Made by a program: the position numbers and the translations under genes. Below, piece after piece: positions 6,596 through 16,047 of a stretch of 16,047 nucleotides of DNA. The stretch is taken from contig CAWBYW010000003.1 of assembly GCA_963792965.1 (NCBI GenBank), positions 1-16,047 on the forward strand. The letters run 5' to 3'. Below the pieces are notes generated by a model. The model had not been told where the DNA came from and did no database searches. It saw only the letters and a list, made by a program, of their open reading frames with translations. The DNA comes from an uncultured delta proteobacterium (lineage in GTDB: Bacteria; Desulfobacterota; Zymogenia; Zymogenales; Zymogenaceae). Positions within the stretch are counted from its first letter, which is position 1. Each line of letters begins with the position of its first letter.

Positions 6596-8236
6596 ATGGT
6601 AAAGATGCGCGGCGCGGACATTCTGATCAAGGCCCTGATCTCGGAAGGAGTCGACGTGGCCTTCGGCTATCCCGGAGGGGCGATCCTCCCGCTCTACGAC
6701 CGGCTCTGCGATAGCCCTATCAGGCACATCCTGGTGCGCCATGAGCAGGGAGCGGCGCACATGGCCGACGGTTACGCCCGCGCCTCGGGCAAGGTCGGCG
6801 TGGCCATCGCCACCAGCGGCCCCGGCTCCACGAACCTCGTCACGGGCCTTGCCACGGCCTACCTTGACTCCTCGTCCGTCGTGGCGATCACGGGGCAGGT
6901 GGAGCGGCGCTTCATCGGCACCGACGCCTTCCAGGAGGTGGACATCGTCGGGATCACCATGCCCATCACGAAACACAACGAGCATATCATGTCGGCCCGC
7001 GACATCTACGGCTCGGTGAAGCTTGCCTTTCACCTGGCCCGCAGCGGCCGCCCCGGCCCCGTACTTTTGGACATCCCCAAGGACGTACTGGAGGAAGAGG
7101 CGACGTTTGACCCCAACGAGGAGGTGACCGTCGAGGGGTATAACCCCGTCGTCGAGGGTCACCTCGGCCAGATCAAGCGGGCGGCAAAGCTGCTGGGCTC
7201 GGCAAAGTCGCCGGTTATCGTGGCGGGCGGCGGCGTGCTCAAGGCGCGGGCGACAGACGAGCTTATCCGTCTCTCGCGCCTCTTGTCCGCGCCGATCCTG
7301 ACCACCCTCATGGGAAAATCGGGCGTGCCGCAGGACTTCGAATATTACCTCGGCATGATCGGGATGCACGGCTCGCGGGCCGCGGTCGAAACGCTGCAGC
7401 GGGCCGACGTGGTGGCGGCGGTCGGTGCGCGCTTCGGGGACCGGGCGGTCCTCTCGTATAAAAAATTCGAGAAGCTTGCCCGCTTCGTCCAGATCGATAT
7501 CGACCCCGCCGAGATCGAAAAGACCGTCGCGGTGGATATCCCCATCGTCGGCGACGCCAAAAAGGTCCTCCATGAGCTCAATAACCGCCTCGCCAAGGAT
7601 GAGGAGCTGACCGGCCGCGCGAAGCGACAGCCCCTGGGCGGCCCCGAGCGCTATGAAGGGGAGGGGCCCCTTTCCATCCCCGGGGCGATTCAGCACCTCT
7701 CGGACATGGAGCGCGACTTCATCGTCGTGACGGACGTGGGCCGCCACCAGATCTGGGCCGCAAAATACTACAACAGCCCACGGCTTCCGATCGGGCTTTT
7801 TTTGACCTCGGGGGGACTCGGGACGATGGGGTTCGGGCTTCCCGCCGCCCTCGGCGCGAAGCTCGCGCAGCCGGAAAAGCAGGTCGTTTTGATTTCCGGA
7901 GACGGAAGCTTTCTCATGAATATCCAGGAGCTTGCCACTTCCTCACATCATCATATCCCGATCCTTGCCGTCGTCATGAACGACCGACACCTCGGCATGA
8001 TCCGCCAGCTCCAGGACGCGTTCTACAAAGAGAAGCATGTCGAGTGCGCCTTTCCTGCCAACGTCAACTACGTGGACGTGGCGCGCGCCATGGGGCTCGA
8101 CGGGGCGCGGGTGACCGATATGGGTCAGCTCACGGACGCCGTCGCGCGCGGGCTCGCATCGGAGGCCGCCTTCGTGATCGAGTGCATCATCGAGTCCCAG
8201 GAGAATATCCCCTATCAATCCTATGACGAGTGGTAA
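6596..8236 (+). CDS. ilvB: Acetolactate synthase large (catalytic) subunit
   Basis: FGYPGGAILP, RHEQGAAHMADGYARASG, TSGPGSTN, GTDAFQEVD, GMIGMHG, DVGRHQIW, SGGLGTMGFGLPAA and the ThDP motif GDGSF...MND..LGMIRQ. Confidence 0.96.
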   Translation: MVKMRGADILIKALISEGVDVAFGYPGGAILPLYDRLCDSPIRHILVRHEQGAAHMADGYARASGKVGVAIATSGPGSTNLVTGLATAYLDSSSVVAITGQVERRFIGTDAFQEVDIVGITMPITKHNEHIMSARDIYGSVKLAFHLARSGRPGPVLLDIPKDVLEEEATFDPNEEVTVEGYNPVVEGHLGQIKRAAKLLGSAKSPVIVAGGGVLKARATDELIRLSRLLSAPILTTLMGKSGVPQDFEYYLGMIGMHGSRAAVETLQRADVVAAVGARFGDRAVLSYKKFEKLARFVQIDIDPAEIEKTVAVDIPIVGDAKKVLHELNNRLAKDEELTGRAKRQPLGGPERYEGEGPLSIPGAIQHLSDMERDFIVVTDVGRHQIWAAKYYNSPRLPIGLFLTSGGLGTMGFGLPAALGAKLAQPEKQVVLISGDGSFLMNIQELATSSHHHIPILAVVMNDRHLGMIRQLQDAFYKEKHVECAFPANVNYVDVARAMGLDGARVTDMGQLTDAVARGLASEAAFVIECIIESQENIPYQSYDEW

Positions 8237-8247
8237 AGGAGACAGGA

Positions 8248-8766
8248 ATGCAGAAGATCATCTCGATCCTGGTCGAGGACAAGCCGGGCGTCCTCATGCG
8301 GATCGCCGGGCTCTTCTACCGCAGGGGATTTAACATCGATGCCCTCTCGGTGGGGAGCACGGAGACGGTCGGCAAGAGCCGCTTTACTATCACCGTCAAC
8401 GGCGATGAGGCCCAGCTCGAGCAGGTCAGAAAGCAGGTGCATAAGCTGTTGAGCGTGCATCGAACCGCCGAGCACGACAGCAAGAGCTCGGAGCTCCGCG
8501 AATATGCGCTCATCAAGATCAACTTCACCGAGAGCACCAAGACCGAGATCTCACACCTCGTCGATTTTTTCGGAGGAAGGATCATCGATATCTTTGAGGG
8601 TGCCGCCATCATCGAGATCGCCGAGGAAGAATCACGCATCGACGCGCTCCTGGAGCGGCTGACCCCCTACGGGATCATCGAGTCGCTCAGGACGGGAAAG
8701 GTGTCGATGTATCGCGGCAAGAAGTCGCTCAACGCCCCCGGCAAGGTGATCAAGCTTACGGGATAG
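8248..8766 (+). CDS. ilvN: Acetolactate synthase small regulatory subunit (copy 1)
   Basis: ACT domain ISILVEDKPGVLMRIAGLFYRRGFNIDALSVG...SRFTI and C-terminal REYALIK...PYGIIESLRTG. ATG 8248 follows AAGGAG. Confidence 0.92.
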   Translation: MQKIISILVEDKPGVLMRIAGLFYRRGFNIDALSVGSTETVGKSRFTITVNGDEAQLEQVRKQVHKLLSVHRTAEHDSKSSELREYALIKINFTESTKTEISHLVDFFGGRIIDIFEGAAIIEIAEEESRIDALLERLTPYGIIESLRTGKVSMYRGKKSLNAPGKVIKLTG

Positions 8767-8818
8767 CGGGGATCAACGATTGCGCGAGGTGAAGGGGACC
8801 CAAGAAAGGACGTGAACT

Positions 8819-9373
8819 ATGGATAAGAAAATGGACCGGATCATGAGGATCTATCCGAAAGAGGAGGAAAAGGAATATACCCTTTACATCCTCTGCGAGA
8901 ATAAGCCCGGCGTCACCGCCAACGTCAGCAACGTCATCTCACGCCGGGGATTCAACATCACCTCCTTCATCGGCGCCAGCACGATGACCGATGACGTCTA
9001 TAAGATCATCATCAAGCTCTACGCCACCCCGACGGGGCTCAAAGGGATCGTCAAGCAGATCGCAAAGCTCATCAACATCATTGAAGTCAAGGACTCCATG
9101 GCCGACCAGTTCATTGAATACGAGATGGTCATGGTGAAGCTCACCTATTCGCCCCAGACCCACGGGGATATCTTCCAGGTCGTCAACCACTATTTCGGCG
9201 AAATCGTCGACCTCCACGACGACAAGCTCACCGTCGCCTTCACCGGTACGCCGCAGAAGCTCAACACGATCCTTGCGCTCATCAGGCATTTCGGAATCCT
9301 CGATATCGTCAAGTCCGGGATCGCCGTTATGAAGAAGCAGGAGCAAAACGACGTGAACGGGTCGTCCGCATAG
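8819..9373 (+). CDS. Second, divergent acetolactate synthase small-subunit homolog
   Basis: ILCENKPGVTANVSNVISRRGFNITSF..., KQIAKLINIIEV, EMVMVKL, IVD, TGTPQKL, FGILDIVKSG: the full IlvN/IlvH layout with a short N-terminal extension. Confidence 0.85.
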   Translation: MDKKMDRIMRIYPKEEEKEYTLYILCENKPGVTANVSNVISRRGFNITSFIGASTMTDDVYKIIIKLYATPTGLKGIVKQIAKLINIIEVKDSMADQFIEYEMVMVKLTYSPQTHGDIFQVVNHYFGEIVDLHDDKLTVAFTGTPQKLNTILALIRHFGILDIVKSGIAVMKKQEQNDVNGSSA

Positions 9374-11000: not shown

Positions 11001-12962
11001 TTATAGCCTTAAATCGGACAGTCCCAGCTCCTTGATCTTTTCGGTGGTCGGTCCGCCCGTTATCTCGTCCCAGCCCATCATCGCAAAGAAACCTTTCTCG
11101 ATCCCGGGCATGTCGAGCGTGACGCCCTTGTGCGGGCCGGAGGTCAGGGGTGGGTTGCCCCAGGCGCGACCGTGCATGGCGGCGTCCTTCGCCTTAAGCC
11201 CCTCGCGCACGTTGAAGGCCTTCCTGAGCGATAAGATCCGCTCGCCGATGGTCCAGAAGTCGTCGGTCGACAGTTTCCAGCCGGTGCTGGCGTTGACGTA
11301 TTCCATGATGGGAAGGGAGCTCGTCAGGGGTCCGAACTCGCACATCCCGCACCCATTGATGAGCTGCAGGTAGAGCGTTGTGGCCTTATAGAGGGCCACG
11401 TCTTTCATCTCGCCCTTGGCCGCCTTTATCTCTTTTTTTGCCTGCGGAAAGATCTTCTTAACCCCCCAGAGCTGGCCGTAAAGGAGGGCGCCGATCGTAT
11501 GCCTGCCGGGGGTCGGCTCGCACTGGTAGGCGATCCCGTAGCCCTTGTCGAGCCTCGGGTCGTGCATCGGGAGCTCCTGCCCGCCGGCATGGACGGCGTA
11601 CTTGAAGGAATCGCCACCGATCTCCTCGGCCGCCTTCTTGACTCCGTCGGCGAGGATATTTCCGATCCCCTCGCGCTTGATCATCATTTCGATCAGCTTC
11701 TTGATCGCGTCGCTCTTTCCCCACCCGAGCTTGAGGCCGCCGGTCATCTTTTCGTTGATGATGCCGTTCTCGAAACACTCGATGGCAAACGCCACGGCTC
11801 CGCCGGCAGATATGGTGTCAATGCCTGCGCGGTTGCACATCTCGTTGATCTCGATAATGCCGTCCATGTCGTCGTTTAGATTCAGCGTGCCCATCGCGCA
11901 GAGGGTCTCGTATTCGGGCTTATGGCCCTCAGTCCCCTTATATTTTCCCTTGGTGATGTCGAAGATGCCGCCGCAGCCCAGCGGACAGGCCTGGCAGGCG
12001 TATTTTCTCTTCTCGTGCTTGATAAGCTCCTTGTCGGAGAGCTTATGGCTCATCGTGTCGATGGGAAAATCGGCGTAGCCGACGCCGCTCCAGTTCTTCA
12101 CGGGGCTGTCCCCGACCTCCGAAGAGTAGCCGGTCATGCCGCCCGTGCCGAAGGTCTTGAAGAGGAGACGGACGGTAGAGGGCTGGGTCGGGATGGAGAC
12201 GCCGGTGCGCCCGATGATCTTGCCGACGAAGTTGAGGAGCTTGACCGAGATCTTGTCCGGCGGGCCGAACTTCCTGAACTTTTCGATGAATTTCTTGTTG
12301 AGCTCCTTCATCCTGTCTGGATCCGCAACCGGCACCTTGCCGGTGCCCCGGACCGAAAAAGCCTTGAGCTTCTTGTATCCCATGACCGCGCCGAGGCCGG
12401 AGCGCGCGGCGATCCGGCCGCTGTCGGTCACGACCCCGGAGATGAGAGAGATCTTCTCCCCCGCCATCCCGATCGAGGCAACCTGGATGTTCTTGTCCTT
12501 AAGCTCCTTTTTGATGGACTCCTCGGTCTCGACGGCGTCTCGTCCCCAGAGCTTCTTGGCATCCTTGAATTCGACCCTATCGTCGGCAATATGAAGCCAG
12601 ACCGGGTCCTTTGACGCCCCGGTGAAGAAGACGGCGTCATATCCCGCCTTCTTTAGCTCATTGGAAAACTTGCCCCCCGAGTTGGCGTCTCCCCAGCCGC
12701 CGGTCAGGGGTGATTTGCCCACGACCATGTAGCGGCCGGAGAACCAGGCGCCCGTGCCGGTCAAGAGCCCGGTGCAAAACCCGAGGTAGCTCTCGGCCGA
12801 GAGGGCGTTTGTCCCCGGTTTTTGGCGCTCCGTGATGACGGCGGCGCCCAGCCCGTAGCCCGAGAGATATTTCCGGTAGAAGCCTTCTGCGGGTTTGATC
12901 GTCTCGAAGCTCTTTTTCGTCAGGTCAACAATGAGGTATTTCCCCATGAATCCACCCGGCAT
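11001..12962 (-). CDS. Aldehyde:ferredoxin oxidoreductase family protein (tungstopterin, 4Fe-4S)
   Basis: KSPLTGGWGDANSGG, RIAARSGLGAVMG.KKLKA, CQACPLGC, PEYET, CNRAGIDTIS, GNILADG, HDPR and the distal Cys in GMCEF. ATG 12962 follows the RBS GGAGG. Confidence 0.94.
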   Translation of the reverse strand: MPGGFMGKYLIVDLTKKSFETIKPAEGFYRKYLSGYGLGAAVITERQKPGTNALSAESYLGFCTGLLTGTGAWFSGRYMVVGKSPLTGGWGDANSGGKFSNELKKAGYDAVFFTGASKDPVWLHIADDRVEFKDAKKLWGRDAVETEESIKKELKDKNIQVASIGMAGEKISLISGVVTDSGRIAARSGLGAVMGYKKLKAFSVRGTGKVPVADPDRMKELNKKFIEKFRKFGPPDKISVKLLNFVGKIIGRTGVSIPTQPSTVRLLFKTFGTGGMTGYSSEVGDSPVKNWSGVGYADFPIDTMSHKLSDKELIKHEKRKYACQACPLGCGGIFDITKGKYKGTEGHKPEYETLCAMGTLNLNDDMDGIIEINEMCNRAGIDTISAGGAVAFAIECFENGIINEKMTGGLKLGWGKSDAIKKLIEMMIKREGIGNILADGVKKAAEEIGGDSFKYAVHAGGQELPMHDPRLDKGYGIAYQCEPTPGRHTIGALLYGQLWGVKKIFPQAKKEIKAAKGEMKDVALYKATTLYLQLINGCGMCEFGPLTSSLPIMEYVNASTGWKLSTDDFWTIGERILSLRKAFNVREGLKAKDAAMHGRAWGNPPLTSGPHKGVTLDMPGIEKGFFAMMGWDEITGGPTTEKIKELGLSDLRL

Positions 12963-12994
12963 ATCGTCCTCCATTAGTGAAGTCAATTTGTCTC

Positions 12995-13022
12995 ATTATA
13001 TCGTGGTGAGAAAAGAAAGCAA
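12995..13022 (-). promoter_or_regulatory. sigma70 promoter of the AOR gene
   Basis: Minus strand TTGCTT (13022-13017), 16 nt spacer, TATAAT (13000-12995). Confidence 0.6.
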
Positions 13023-13200
13023 CATTTTTCTAAACCGATACGAGCGCCCACCGTCCACGCTCATCATGAGCGGATACCGGAGGTGCCGAAGCACTCAGTG
13101 AGTCAAAGTGGGGGGGGCTGATGGAATTCACCCGCAGAGCGGGTCGCGCGCGGGTGTGGTCGGCAATGTCTCCGGGGAAACGTCGCTTTCCCGGGGCGTC

Positions 13201-14820
13201 CTACTGGACAGGGCACTTTATCTTCTTGAGCTTTTCGGCGTAGACGAAGTTGTTGTCGTTATCGGGGGTGTGGCAGGTGACGCAGTTTGCCTCCGCGGTG
13301 AGATTTTGCATCCTGTATTTTTTATTGTCCGTGATATGCAGGCTCCCCGGTCCGTGGCAGTCCTCGCACTGGACGCCAAGGAGATTATCCGCCGCCAGGA
13401 CGTTGGTGAAACCACCGGGTTTGTTAAACCCGGTGGTGTGACAGCCGATGCAGTCGGGCTCAAACTGACGCTCTTTTTCGCGCAGGGTTTCGTATGCCTT
13501 GACGTGCTTGGTGCCCTCGACGAAATCATAGATCTTCGTGTGGCACCCTTTGCAGTTGGCCATTCCCACGTAGTGCGGCTCTACCACAACGCCCGGGGGG
13601 GAGCCGCCCCATTCCCCGAGCTGGGACTGTTTTTGCTGTTCCTTGATCTTGATGAGCTCGTCCGCGTACTTCTTGATAATATCTCTGATGGTTGGGTCGT
13701 CGGCATAGCTCGTGTCCAGGGCGATCAGGGTCGCTTTCACCGTGTTAGGGCGGTCCTTCGTCGATTCGCCCTGGAGTTTTTCGAGCTTTGCATCGACCTG
13801 GGCCATCTCGTCGGTAACGAGCTTTTCCATCGACGACATATCTTTGCCCTGCTTCTTCTGGGCATCGATGTCGGCCATGAAGACCTGGAGCTGCTGCTTG
13901 CGGAGGAGCAGTTCCTGGCTCTCGAAGGAGGTCGTTGAATTGCTCCCCTCGACGAAGATGTCATAGGGGTGCTTTATTGCGGTGATCTTGAAATCGAGCC
14001 GGTCAATATACTTACCCCGAGAGTAGAGGGTCGTGATGAGGCTGTTTTTCTCGGTGACGGGCTGGAAGATATTTACCTCACCCCCGTGTCCCACGATCAT
14101 CAGGTCGATGGAGTCGTACTCCTGGGCAAGCACCTTGGCGTCGGTGACCCCGGTGTGGGCCAGCACGATGATGAAGTCGGATTTCTTCTTGAGCTCCTCA
14201 ATGACGGAGCCGAGGGATGAGGCCGGGTCTCCCACGTAGATGCCGTCCTTATCCTGCCTGTCGGCGGAAAACCCCACTTCGTTTCCAATCACCGCCGTGA
14301 TCCCCACGCGGAGGCCGCCCATCTTGACGACGGTATACGGCTTGAAGACGTACTTGTTGGTCTCCTTATCGAAGACATTGGCCGACGACAGCGGGAAATC
14401 CGCCATCTTCGCCAGGTCTTTGAGGTAATTGGTCCCGAGCGCAAAGTCCCGCTCACCCAGGCCGAGCGCGGTCCATCCCATGGCGTTGTAGGACTCGATT
14501 ATCTTCTTGCCGTTCAGGGCAAGGGAGACATCGGGGTTATCGCCATACTCCGGGTCGCTGAACAAGAGATCGCCCGCGTCAAGGAGGAGGAGGTTCTTGG
14601 TGTCCTTCTTTACGGTACCGATATAGGTTGCTTTCCTGGCCAGACCGCCAAGCTGGTTGGATTTTCACCCACAGGGCTCGGTCTCGCCGAGCACGTCATT
14701 GGAATAGACAAGAGTGAAATCCGCCTTGCCGGGAGTGTAGCTTTTGCAGTAGGTCACGCCCAGGAAGACAAAGAAGATCGCCAAGACGATCATGACGTTT
14801 CGCCAGATGGTTTTTCCCAT
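13201..14820 (-). CDS. Selenocysteine-containing (U52) UshA-like/metallophosphoesterase-fold protein fused to a tetraheme c554-type cytochrome c; exported, possibly a lipoprotein; 539 aa
   Basis: ATG 14820 follows GGAG. The frame reads YSNDVLGETEPCG-TGA(14665-14667)-KSNQLGGLARKATYI...LLLDAGDLLFSD and continues in frame into ORF 13201..14565. Four CxxCH motifs (CKGCH, CIGCH, CEDCH, CVTCH) and a SECIS-like hairpin 3' of the UGA. Confidence 0.9.
14635..14652 (-). promoter_or_regulatory. Putative bacterial SECIS element
   Basis: After a 12-nt spacer from the UGA: CUUGGC-GGUCUG-GCCAGG, a 6-bp stem whose loop GGUCUG resembles the apical GGUCU of the E. coli fdhF SECIS. Confidence 0.7.
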
Positions 14821-14848
14821 AGAACGGTCTCCCAAAAAAATCCTCATC

Positions 14849-14877
14849 ATTATAGACAAAAAGATCCCCCTTGTCAA
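14849..14877 (-). promoter_or_regulatory. Perfect-consensus sigma70 promoter of the selenoprotein gene
   Basis: TTGACA (14877-14872), 17 nt spacer, TATAAT (14854-14849). Confidence 0.85.
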
Positions 14878-14935
14878 CAAATGGATTGTCTTTGCTGTGC
14901 CGTATGCTTCTTCTCCCGTCCGAGAGGAAGGGGGC

Positions 14936-15520
14936 CTAAATCCATACCGTTTCCCGTGAAATCCCTCATGCCGTCTATGACCTGGTCGATGCTACCTATA
15001 CGCCCCACCTTAAGCTCTTGTTCAAGCTCATAGAATTTCAGACACGTGCCGCACGAATATATTTCCACGCCCATGTCGCAGAGCTCTTTGAGATGCCCGA
15101 CGACGATGTCTTCCACGGTCGTCAGCCTGACGCCCGCGTTCAGAAAAAAAATATGTCGGGCATTTTTTTTGTCAGCTTCATCGCCTCAAAGAAGCGGATT
15201 ATCAGTATTTTGCCTAATTGCTCTTCCTTTCCCAGCGAATCGGTCCCAACGACCATAAACATCCTCTTCTCTTCTCCCCCGCCTTCTTCGACGGCCCAAT
15301 TCTGGTCGCCCGGCTTCTTCGTGATCGTCACCTTCCAGTGGTCCGCCTCTTTCACCACATCGACCGGCAGTGCGATGCCTGTGGCAAACCGGGAGAGGTT
15401 ATGGACGGCGTTTTCGTTTCCCACGAGTATTTCAACGGTTCCCTCAGTCATCTGAGAGAGCGCCTCTTTCGTCTTCACGACGGGAAGGGGACACGACAGA
15501 TCCCGTGCGTCGATCTTCAT
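14936..15520 (-). CDS. yedF: YedF-like sulfurtransferase/selenium metabolism protein (TusA/SirA + DsrE domains); two single-base frameshifts
   Basis: TusA motif IDARDLSCPLPVVKTKEAL; DsrE-like D.LG....LGKILI..FF, (FF)LNAGVRLT, GVEIYSCGTCL.FY.L...LKVG. One base is missing at or near the A8 run 15144-15151. Removing one G near 14953-14955 gives the C-terminus FTETVWI-TAG (stop 14936-14938). RBS AAGGAG. Confidence 0.85.
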
Positions 15521-15579
15521 GGTATTCTCCTTTCTTGTTTTGTATCGGTGGCTCTATCGCAGCGATAGACCCTGGCCGG

Positions 15580-16031
15580 CTAAGGATTCTCCAGCTCTCT
15601 GATGATGATGCGTCCCGTTTCATAGGCCACCTCCCCGTGAACGCGATGCACTGCTCCATGTGCCGGGGAGAGCCGAGCTCCATCTTCTTGGTCAATTTCC
15701 TGCAGCAGAGGCGGCCGTGCCTCTCCCGGAACAGATCATGGAGCTCTTTTGAGAGCCTCATGACGTGCTCGCTTTTCTTATCCTTGGGAGAGGTTCTGCC
15801 GAAAAACATCCCAAGGGCCATAACGCCGCCGGTTACGGCCCCGCATGCGCACCCCGCGCCGCCCATGCCGACGGGAAAGCCTGAGGCGAGTGCCACAACG
15901 TCATCGGACATCGCAACGCCGAAGGCATCCTTGATCGTCTTGACGATGGCCTCCGAGCAGTAGAAGTCTCCGTTGCGGTAGTAGGCTTCGGCCTTATTCC
16001 TGATCTCCTCAAGATCAACCGATTGTTTCAT
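15580..16031 (-). CDS. C_GCAxxG_C_C family putative redox-active protein (one frameshift near the 3' end)
   Basis: FYCSEAI, ASGFPVGMGGAGCACGAVTGG, FRERHG.LCCR.L, QC. Adding one G at the C4 run 15633-15636 gives FTGEVAYETGRIIIRELENP-TAG (stop 15580-15582) and removes the overlap with yedF. RBS GGAG..GAGTG region upstream. Confidence 0.88.
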
Positions 16032-16047
16032 GATTCACTCCTGTCCC

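Follow-up and report, generated by a model that had tools for sequence, protein, structure and literature searches.

A UshA-like Cys-Gly-Sec protein with a tetraheme cytochrome domain encoded across an in-frame TGA in a Zymogenaceae genome

Introduction

UshA-like proteins with a Cys-x-Sec motif are a catalogued selenoprotein family. They were tabled as "COG0737, UshA-like, CxU" in 2008 (PMC2398784), are listed too in PMC9312934, and appear as UshA-like protein, NF041198, CxU in a selenoprotein table of 2026 (PMC13188914). Our literature search returned such tables only and no experiment on the function of the NF041198 family; supplementary files may hold more.

The N-terminal domain of these proteins shares both fold and sequence homology with Escherichia coli UshA and other 5'-nucleotidases (PDB 1ush, 3ive, 2z1a). 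The same fold is adopted by the thiosulfohydrolase SoxB (TIGR04486; PDB 2wdc), a periplasmic enzyme that relies on a dimanganese site and whose substrate is sulfur-bound. The C-terminal domain has a homologue in the tetraheme cytochrome c554 of Nitrosomonas (PDB 1bvb, 1ft5). Modules of the c554 type are likewise joined to Cys-based redox domains in two exported proteins that we identified among the homologues: P0116, in which a TlpA/peroxiredoxin-like CPHC domain is joined to two haem modules, and P0119, which combines a UshA-like CGC domain, a tetraheme module and a DsbA-like domain. Both are metagenomic and uncharacterised, and their redox domains differ from the protein described here, so that they offer a lead only.

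Here we analyse a member of the NF041198 family encoded within a 16,047-nucleotide stretch (the window; positions 1 to 16,047 of contig CAWBYW010000003.1, assembly GCA_963792965.1) from an uncultured delta proteobacterium of the Zymogenaceae.

Results and discussion

The gene is a member of the NF041198 family

A short minus-strand ORF (14665–14880) closes with ...GETEPCG, followed by TGA. The 33 codons past this TGA (14566–14664) are open and in frame with a 454-aa ORF with a TTG start (13201–14565), and the layout given in the preliminary description, in which these open codons join the short ORF to a cytochrome ORF, is correct in coordinates and description. When the TGA is read as U from ATG 14820, a single 539-aa frame runs to a stop at 13201, and its only TGA is residue 52 in the motif E-P-C-G-U (Cys50-Gly51-Sec52). 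The coordinates of the gene and its features are collected in Table 1.

The read-through protein scored 507.2 bits against the NCBIfam model NF041198 (UshA_like_PCGU; cut-off 275), with residues 12–528 aligned to model positions 1–519 of 519 in one HMM stretch that spans the TGA. A search of the genome with this model returned a 596-aa open frame containing exactly one TGA (499.1 bits on DNA). Because one HMM stretch crosses the TGA and the recovered frame contains this single TGA, the join cannot be attributed to a chance open frame. The gene is therefore a member of the catalogued NF041198 UshA-like (seleno)protein family. Its in-frame TGA most likely specifies Sec. It shares with the family the full-length match, the P-C-G-U motif, the tetraheme tail and the occurrence of Sec and Cys forms, and we identified no structural difference. 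Since the full length of the model includes the tetraheme tail, the fusion of this tail to the UshA-like domain is already part of the curated family and is not new. The UshA-like/tetraheme cytochrome fusion proposed earlier is thus borne out, with the UshA-like domain and four haem sites found by PF13435, NF041198, profile and Foldseek comparisons, whereas the novelty implied for it was too high, the whole architecture being that of a curated equivalog with entries in published selenoprotein tables.

Public sequencing data cover parts of the gene. A contig of 199 nt from a public run spans 14512–14710 and differs only at position 14545, with the TGA unchanged; its depth is low, and it may derive from the sample that gave the assembly. 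Public contigs cover this interval and parts of 13201–13691, none of them spanning the whole gene. Among public runs, only four DNA runs, all small-share and from a single study, contain parts of the stretch, and no RNA run is listed for it. Genome-wide recoding of TGA was considered and rejected: the other long ORFs of the window are intact under table 11, and rpoB and rpoC are without internal stops.

Table 1. Positions of the selenoprotein gene, its sequence features and the tandem acetolactate synthase small-subunit genes in the window.
Feature	Position	Strand	Evidence
Promoter-like site: TTGACA (14877–14872), 17-nt spacer, TATAAT (14854–14849)	14849–14877	-	12/12 match to sigma-70 consensus
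GGGAG ribosome-binding-like site, 8 nt before ATG 14820	14829–14833	-	Read from sequence
Full CDS, UshA-like PCGU selenoprotein, 539 aa + stop	13201–14820	-	Translation, family HMM, genome search
N-terminal hydrophobic signal or anchor, residues 1–25, ending at Cys25	14746–14820	-	Sequence, modelled helix 2–24
Calcineurin-like (5'-nucleotidase-type) fold, residues ~33–290, degenerate metal-ligand motifs	13951–14724	-	Profile, ligand count, Foldseek
UGA codon as selenocysteine, residue 52, E-P-C-G-U	14665–14667	-	Translation, relatives, homologue alignment, public-run contig
SECIS-like hairpin CUUGGC-GGUCUG-GCCAGG, 6-bp stem, starting 12 nt after UGA	14635–14652	-	Folding and comparison
Long helical linker or insert, residues ~299–403	13612–13926	-	Model helices 299–323, 329–351, 376–403
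Cytochrome c554-like tetraheme domain, residues 417–539	13204–13572	-	PF13435, 58.5 bits vs 20.8
CxxCH motifs	13540–13554, 13438–13452, 13354–13368, 13270–13284	-	Alignment A2, invariant
Acetolactate synthase small-subunit genes, tandem	8230–8766, 8819–9373	+	

Start of translation and N-terminus

The region contains two promoter-like sites against 1.5 ± 1.6 in shuffled sequences, a count that is not significant by itself; the promoter call accordingly rests on the position of the site and its perfect match to the consensus. With this sigma-70 consensus upstream, a GGGAG element 8 nt before it and the competing TTG 14880 overlapping the -35 box, ATG 14820 is the likely start codon. The same overlap rules out TTG 14880 as a start.

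The preliminary description had the upstream piece supply an export signal, and a hydrophobic N-terminus, a requirement for a c-type cytochrome, is indeed present there, modelled as a helix over residues 2–24. In the alignment of homologues (A2), 10/21 sequences share a Cys in the column of Cys25 with a small residue in front of it, resembling a lipobox. Based on the hydrophobic N-terminus, we infer that the protein is exported. The modelled helix and the lipobox-like Cys of many homologues also indicate that it is probably tethered to the membrane.

The tetraheme domain and the Cys-Gly-Sec loop

Pfam recognises only the haem part of the protein, as PF13435 (58.5 bits against a gathering score of 20.8), the family to which Nitrosomonas cytochrome c554 belongs; the profile match to this cytochrome has an E-value of 7.6e-19. 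The haem-binding motifs comprise C423/C426/H427, C457/C460/H461, C485/C488/H489 and C513/C516/H517. Across 241 haem domains, conservation is 99% or higher for these four motifs and for H439 and H495. Because H439 and H495 are the only histidines invariant outside the motifs, two of the haems are without an invariant distal histidine. In comparison with cytochrome c554, the domain forms a module of ~120 residues here, joined to a Cys/Sec domain and with invariant distal histidines limited to two. The C-terminus (residues 533–539, window 13204–13224) carries K-C-P in this subgroup and G-P-G-H in many homologues, and Cys536 is present in 37% of the 241 haem domains. Judged from these sequences, the exchange of K-C-P for G-P-G-H may represent a swap of a haem distal ligand.

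The invariant polar residues of the N-terminal domain are C50, U/C52 and D125 (each 22/22), with E48 present in 20/22. Combined with the evidence on start, export, decoding and fold presented in the neighbouring sections, this leads us to regard as probable a joint explanation in which the gene encodes an NF041198 Sec protein, has its own promoter, starts at ATG 14820 and specifies an exported, haem-linked Cys/Sec redox enzyme. Transcription would start from this promoter and translation at ATG 14820, and UGA52 would most likely be decoded as Sec by SelB and tRNA-Sec, aided by the hairpin 12 nt downstream. The product would then be exported and probably tethered to the membrane. Its N-terminal domain is predicted to keep the 5'-nucleotidase fold and to have lost the two-metal phosphoesterase site, with E48-P-C50-G-U/C52 and D125 conserved instead. 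The Cys-Gly-Sec loop would serve as a redox centre, either as a selenenylsulfide couple or as a small metal site, and would exchange electrons with the four covalently bound c-type haems of the C-terminal c554-like domain. This would make the protein a (seleno)thiol oxidoreductase rather than a nucleotidase, one that is periplasmic, cytochrome-linked and self-contained. The putative redox role of C-G-U is supported by the fusion of tetraheme modules to the CPHC domain of P0116 and the DsbA-like domain of P0119.

Lost phosphatase ligands combined with an invariant C-G-U/C, D125 and four haems provide a concrete functional hypothesis for the family. On a more speculative level, and with rather less than even confidence, we suggest that the family could constitute an undescribed enzyme class, in which a Cys-Gly-Sec loop replaces the two-metal site and a tetraheme wire feeds it single electrons directly. 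If this is true, these proteins would be periplasmic cytochrome-driven selenenylsulfide (or Sec-metal/Sec-haem) catalysts with a sulfur, selenium or peroxide compound as substrate. The suggestion concerns the whole known family and not this gene in particular.

A different chemistry for the same residues appears unlikely, although it fares best among the alternatives that we weighed. Rather than forming a free dithiol-type couple, Cys50/Sec52 might ligate a metal, or might be the axial ligand or neighbour of a haem without an invariant distal histidine, giving a catalytic site of the His/Cys(Sec) type. Such a site would fit the restriction of invariant non-motif histidines to H439 and H495 for four haems across the 241 domains, the conservation of E48 and D125 beside C-G-U, and the KCP terminus of this subgroup where others have GPGH. 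However, the CGU loop is of low confidence in the structural model, haem ligation is not readable from sequence, and five-coordinate haems are normal in c554-type proteins.

Probable decoding of UGA as selenocysteine

The SECIS-like hairpin downstream of the UGA was compared between Sec and Cys forms of the family. Stems of at least 6 bp were found in 24/30 Sec forms versus 20/54 Cys forms, with mean shuffle z values of -1.28 and -0.45, respectively, four spurious rows (L091-, L099-, L115-, L132+) having been left out by eye and L115+ being absent owing to N bases; as the sequences are related, these counts are not independent. The stems of Sec forms mostly occupy the same position and carry a GGUC-type loop, whereas those of Cys forms are scattered despite a higher G+C content. 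In an alignment of 18 sequences (A1), 84.3% of stem cells pair, a value reached by 1/500 shuffles and compared with at most 55.6% in slid controls. Covariation in the stem is modest, with three cells changed on both sides at two pairs. Because the stem overlaps the conserved L-G-G-L-A-R codons, constraint on the protein contributes to its conservation. Taken alone, the hairpin of the window is no more stable than its shuffles (z 0.06), and a search of 12800–16047 returned no Rfam match, SECIS families included, at E up to 1.

The preliminary description had proposed a search of the genome for selA, selB, selC and selD. These components lie on other contigs of a binned genome that is 88.85% complete with 3.98% contamination. 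We identified selB (363.8 bits), tRNA-Sec (72.9 bits, anticodon TCA) and selD (355 bits; C7:544063–544998, L022), all three above their cut-offs. The selD gene contains one in-frame TGA of its own, which makes its product itself a Sec-type selenophosphate synthetase. The exception is selA, which is present but frameshifted in the assembly: the gene (G000 C16:161118–162382, L009–L013) is broken into at least four frames by six 1-nt insertions in about 1.3 kb relative to four relatives, and its flanking genes are intact. Among relatives of the same family, selA is intact in 8/9, and a split selA is also present in one relative with few contigs.

If the selA frameshifts were real, Sec could not be made. 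Several other genes bear on this point. The essential ileS (C16:201368–203844), on the same contig and 40 kb from selA, falls into three or more frame pieces, and a related synthetase (C7:468753–470919) likewise appears in pieces, a pattern suggestive of locally clustered indel errors in this assembly. Both rpoB and rpoC are whole. Within the window, yedF (TIGR03527; 14874–15520, minus strand) occupies two frames, with pieces of 88.2 and 56.6 bits, owing to an additional T within a tract of eight T at ~15140–15150, probably an assembly indel. Since the essential ileS of the same contig is also split and yedF has gained a T, the damage to selA is probably a clustered assembly error.

It follows that we give little credence to the alternative in which the frameshifts are real and this strain has lost Sec decoding, so that translation now stops at the TGA and the gene has recently become a stranded relic. 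The six 1-nt insertions between intact neighbours, in a gene intact in most of the family, would be expected under such a scenario. The split ileS and the extra T of yedF, however, point to clustered assembly indels, a few-contig relative also has a split selA, and selB, tRNA-Sec, a Sec-type selD and both PCGU genes of the genome are otherwise intact.

The second of these PCGU genes encodes an exported P-C-G-TGA paralogue of 319 aa without a haem domain (C7:686352–687098; L027 1342–2301, minus strand). Its scores are below the cut-offs of both NF041198 (193 against 275 bits) and NF049981 (45.9 against 140 bits), so that it fits neither curated family. Upstream in the window, the Cys form of a C_GCAxxG_C_C family (seleno)protein gene spans 15444–16031 (minus strand; TIGR01909, 116.4 bits). 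Its tail past ~residue 140 shares 76 nt with the start of yedF and has no match, which points to a further frame error close to the end of this gene.

The N-terminal domain retains a 5'-nucleotidase fold

A profile built from 22 members matched 5'-nucleotidases over residues ~34–284 (E 1e-17 to 1e-28) and cytochrome c554 over the tail. The AlphaFold2 model (mean pLDDT 78.2, pTM 0.70) is weak in the CGU loop, where residues 49–51 have pLDDT below 50, and its best Foldseek matches are 5'-nucleotidases (E 6e-17). The helical linker that follows the domain is gapped in the homologues P0022, P0023, P0029, P0075 and P0079.

The dimetal ligands of phosphoesterases with this fold (DxH, GDxxD, GNH[E/D], His, GHxH) are not conserved across the 22 sequences: the Asp of motif I is present in 14/22 and its His in 3/22 (Leu44 here), the Asn-His pair of motif III in 0/22 (Glu123-Arg124 here), and the metal-ligand histidines H222 and H245 in 7/22 and 5/22, respectively. 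The Pfam scan, in which only cytochrome families matched, gave neither PF00149 nor the 5'-nucleotidase C-terminal substrate-binding domain. The protein scored 65.4 bits on the UshA model (cut-off 600), and SoxB is the best-scoring named enzyme after its own family at 83.6 bits, far below the cut-off of 550; the scores on the UshA, SoxB and CpdB models all lie far below their cut-offs. Relative to UshA and other 5'-nucleotidases, the dimetal motifs are not conserved, the C-terminal nucleotide-binding domain is absent, and in its stead the family shows a C-G-U insertion behind motif I as well as a tetraheme domain. Relative to SoxB, the ligands of the dimanganese site are lost.

As the phosphatase metal ligands are not conserved, we infer a redox enzyme built on a repurposed phosphatase fold rather than a nucleotidase. 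That the domain should still work as a 5'-nucleotidase or phosphodiesterase, with the haems as accessories, is very unlikely: the fold and the presence of D42, D81 and D84 in this sequence agree with such an activity, but the motif-I His is found in 3/22 and the motif-III Asn-His pair in 0/22, with Leu44, Glu123 and Arg124 in their places here, the PF00149 and 5'-nucleotidase C-terminal matches are missing, and the UshA, SoxB and CpdB scores fall far short.

Conservation of the Cys/Sec column among relatives

We searched 41 genomes with the family model (match threshold E up to 1e-60) and obtained matches in 20, including 9/9 of the same taxonomic family. Exactly one in-frame TGA was present in 19 of the 22 match rows. 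The three rows without it comprise one Cys form with C-G-C (G024) and two, G001 and G030, in which the match begins after the motif; that of G001 starts 3 bases from the end of a contig. The motif P-C-G-TGA was found in 16 relatives' loci and C-x-x-TGA in two further ones. Among 80 loci of other phyla, 14 carry TGA and 54 carry TGC or TGT at this codon, and in 12 no motif was located by pattern.

When the protein is aligned with 21 full-length homologues (A2), C50, G51 and C/U52 are invariant (22/22), and all 21 homologues have Cys in the column of residue 52. The earlier proposal that homologues should show Cys or a conserved TGA at this residue is matched by these data, as is the reading of the TGA as Sec at a conserved C-x-U/C column, the relatives keeping TGA and other homologues Cys. 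That the TGA is a sequencing error or nonsense mutation in place of a true Cys or Trp codon can hardly be credited, since the errors that the assembly does contain are indels and not substitutions and the TGA recurs at the same codon in 16 relatives' loci and in the public-run contig.

Cys forms also score above the NF041198 cut-off (P0003, 506 bits; P0022, 412 bits) and occur in cultured myxobacteria, namely Sorangium cellulosum, Nannocystis punicea and a Myxococcus strain. At E up to 1e-30, the NF041198-type family comprises 829 clusters at 50% identity, distributed over Myxococcota, Desulfobacterota, Planctomycetota, Acidobacteriota, Verrucomicrobiota and other phyla. Database entries for this large family are often cut short at the UGA. 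Of the 13 non-self matches at 62% identity or more, 12 are 438–472 aa long and cover only 81–87% of the query, and some three dozen of the 150 representatives listed begin just after residue 52. Gene callers thus split the protein, as anticipated in the preliminary description. For the locus studied here, two annotations, a 71-aa stub and a "hypothetical" 454-aa cytochrome lacking a signal peptide, become one 539-aa exported selenoprotein.

Gene neighbourhood

Clustering of the ORFs of 10 distant or near loci and the window revealed no neighbour shared beyond close kin. Across 91 loci with 610 ORFs, no conserved neighbour pointing to a substrate was found, and the most widespread neighbour cluster is present in six loci. 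The 10 neighbour-cluster representatives that were scanned are unrelated genes, one without a Pfam match and nine with matches to ABC ATPase, TsaD, S16, TrmD, DciA, KsgA, LysM transglycosylase, protein kinase and DHH phosphoesterase. The upstream yedF and C_GCAxxG genes stand beside the selenoprotein gene in 0/19 relatives' loci.

Downstream, 214 nt from the selenoprotein gene, lies an aldehyde:ferredoxin oxidoreductase gene (window 11001–12986, minus strand). This adjacency is retained in 7/19 relatives' loci and, because all seven belong to the same taxonomic family, represents synteny by descent. Elsewhere in the window, 6596–9373 on the plus strand is occupied by a gene for the large subunit of acetolactate synthase and, after it, two small-subunit (ACT/ALS_ss_C) genes in tandem.
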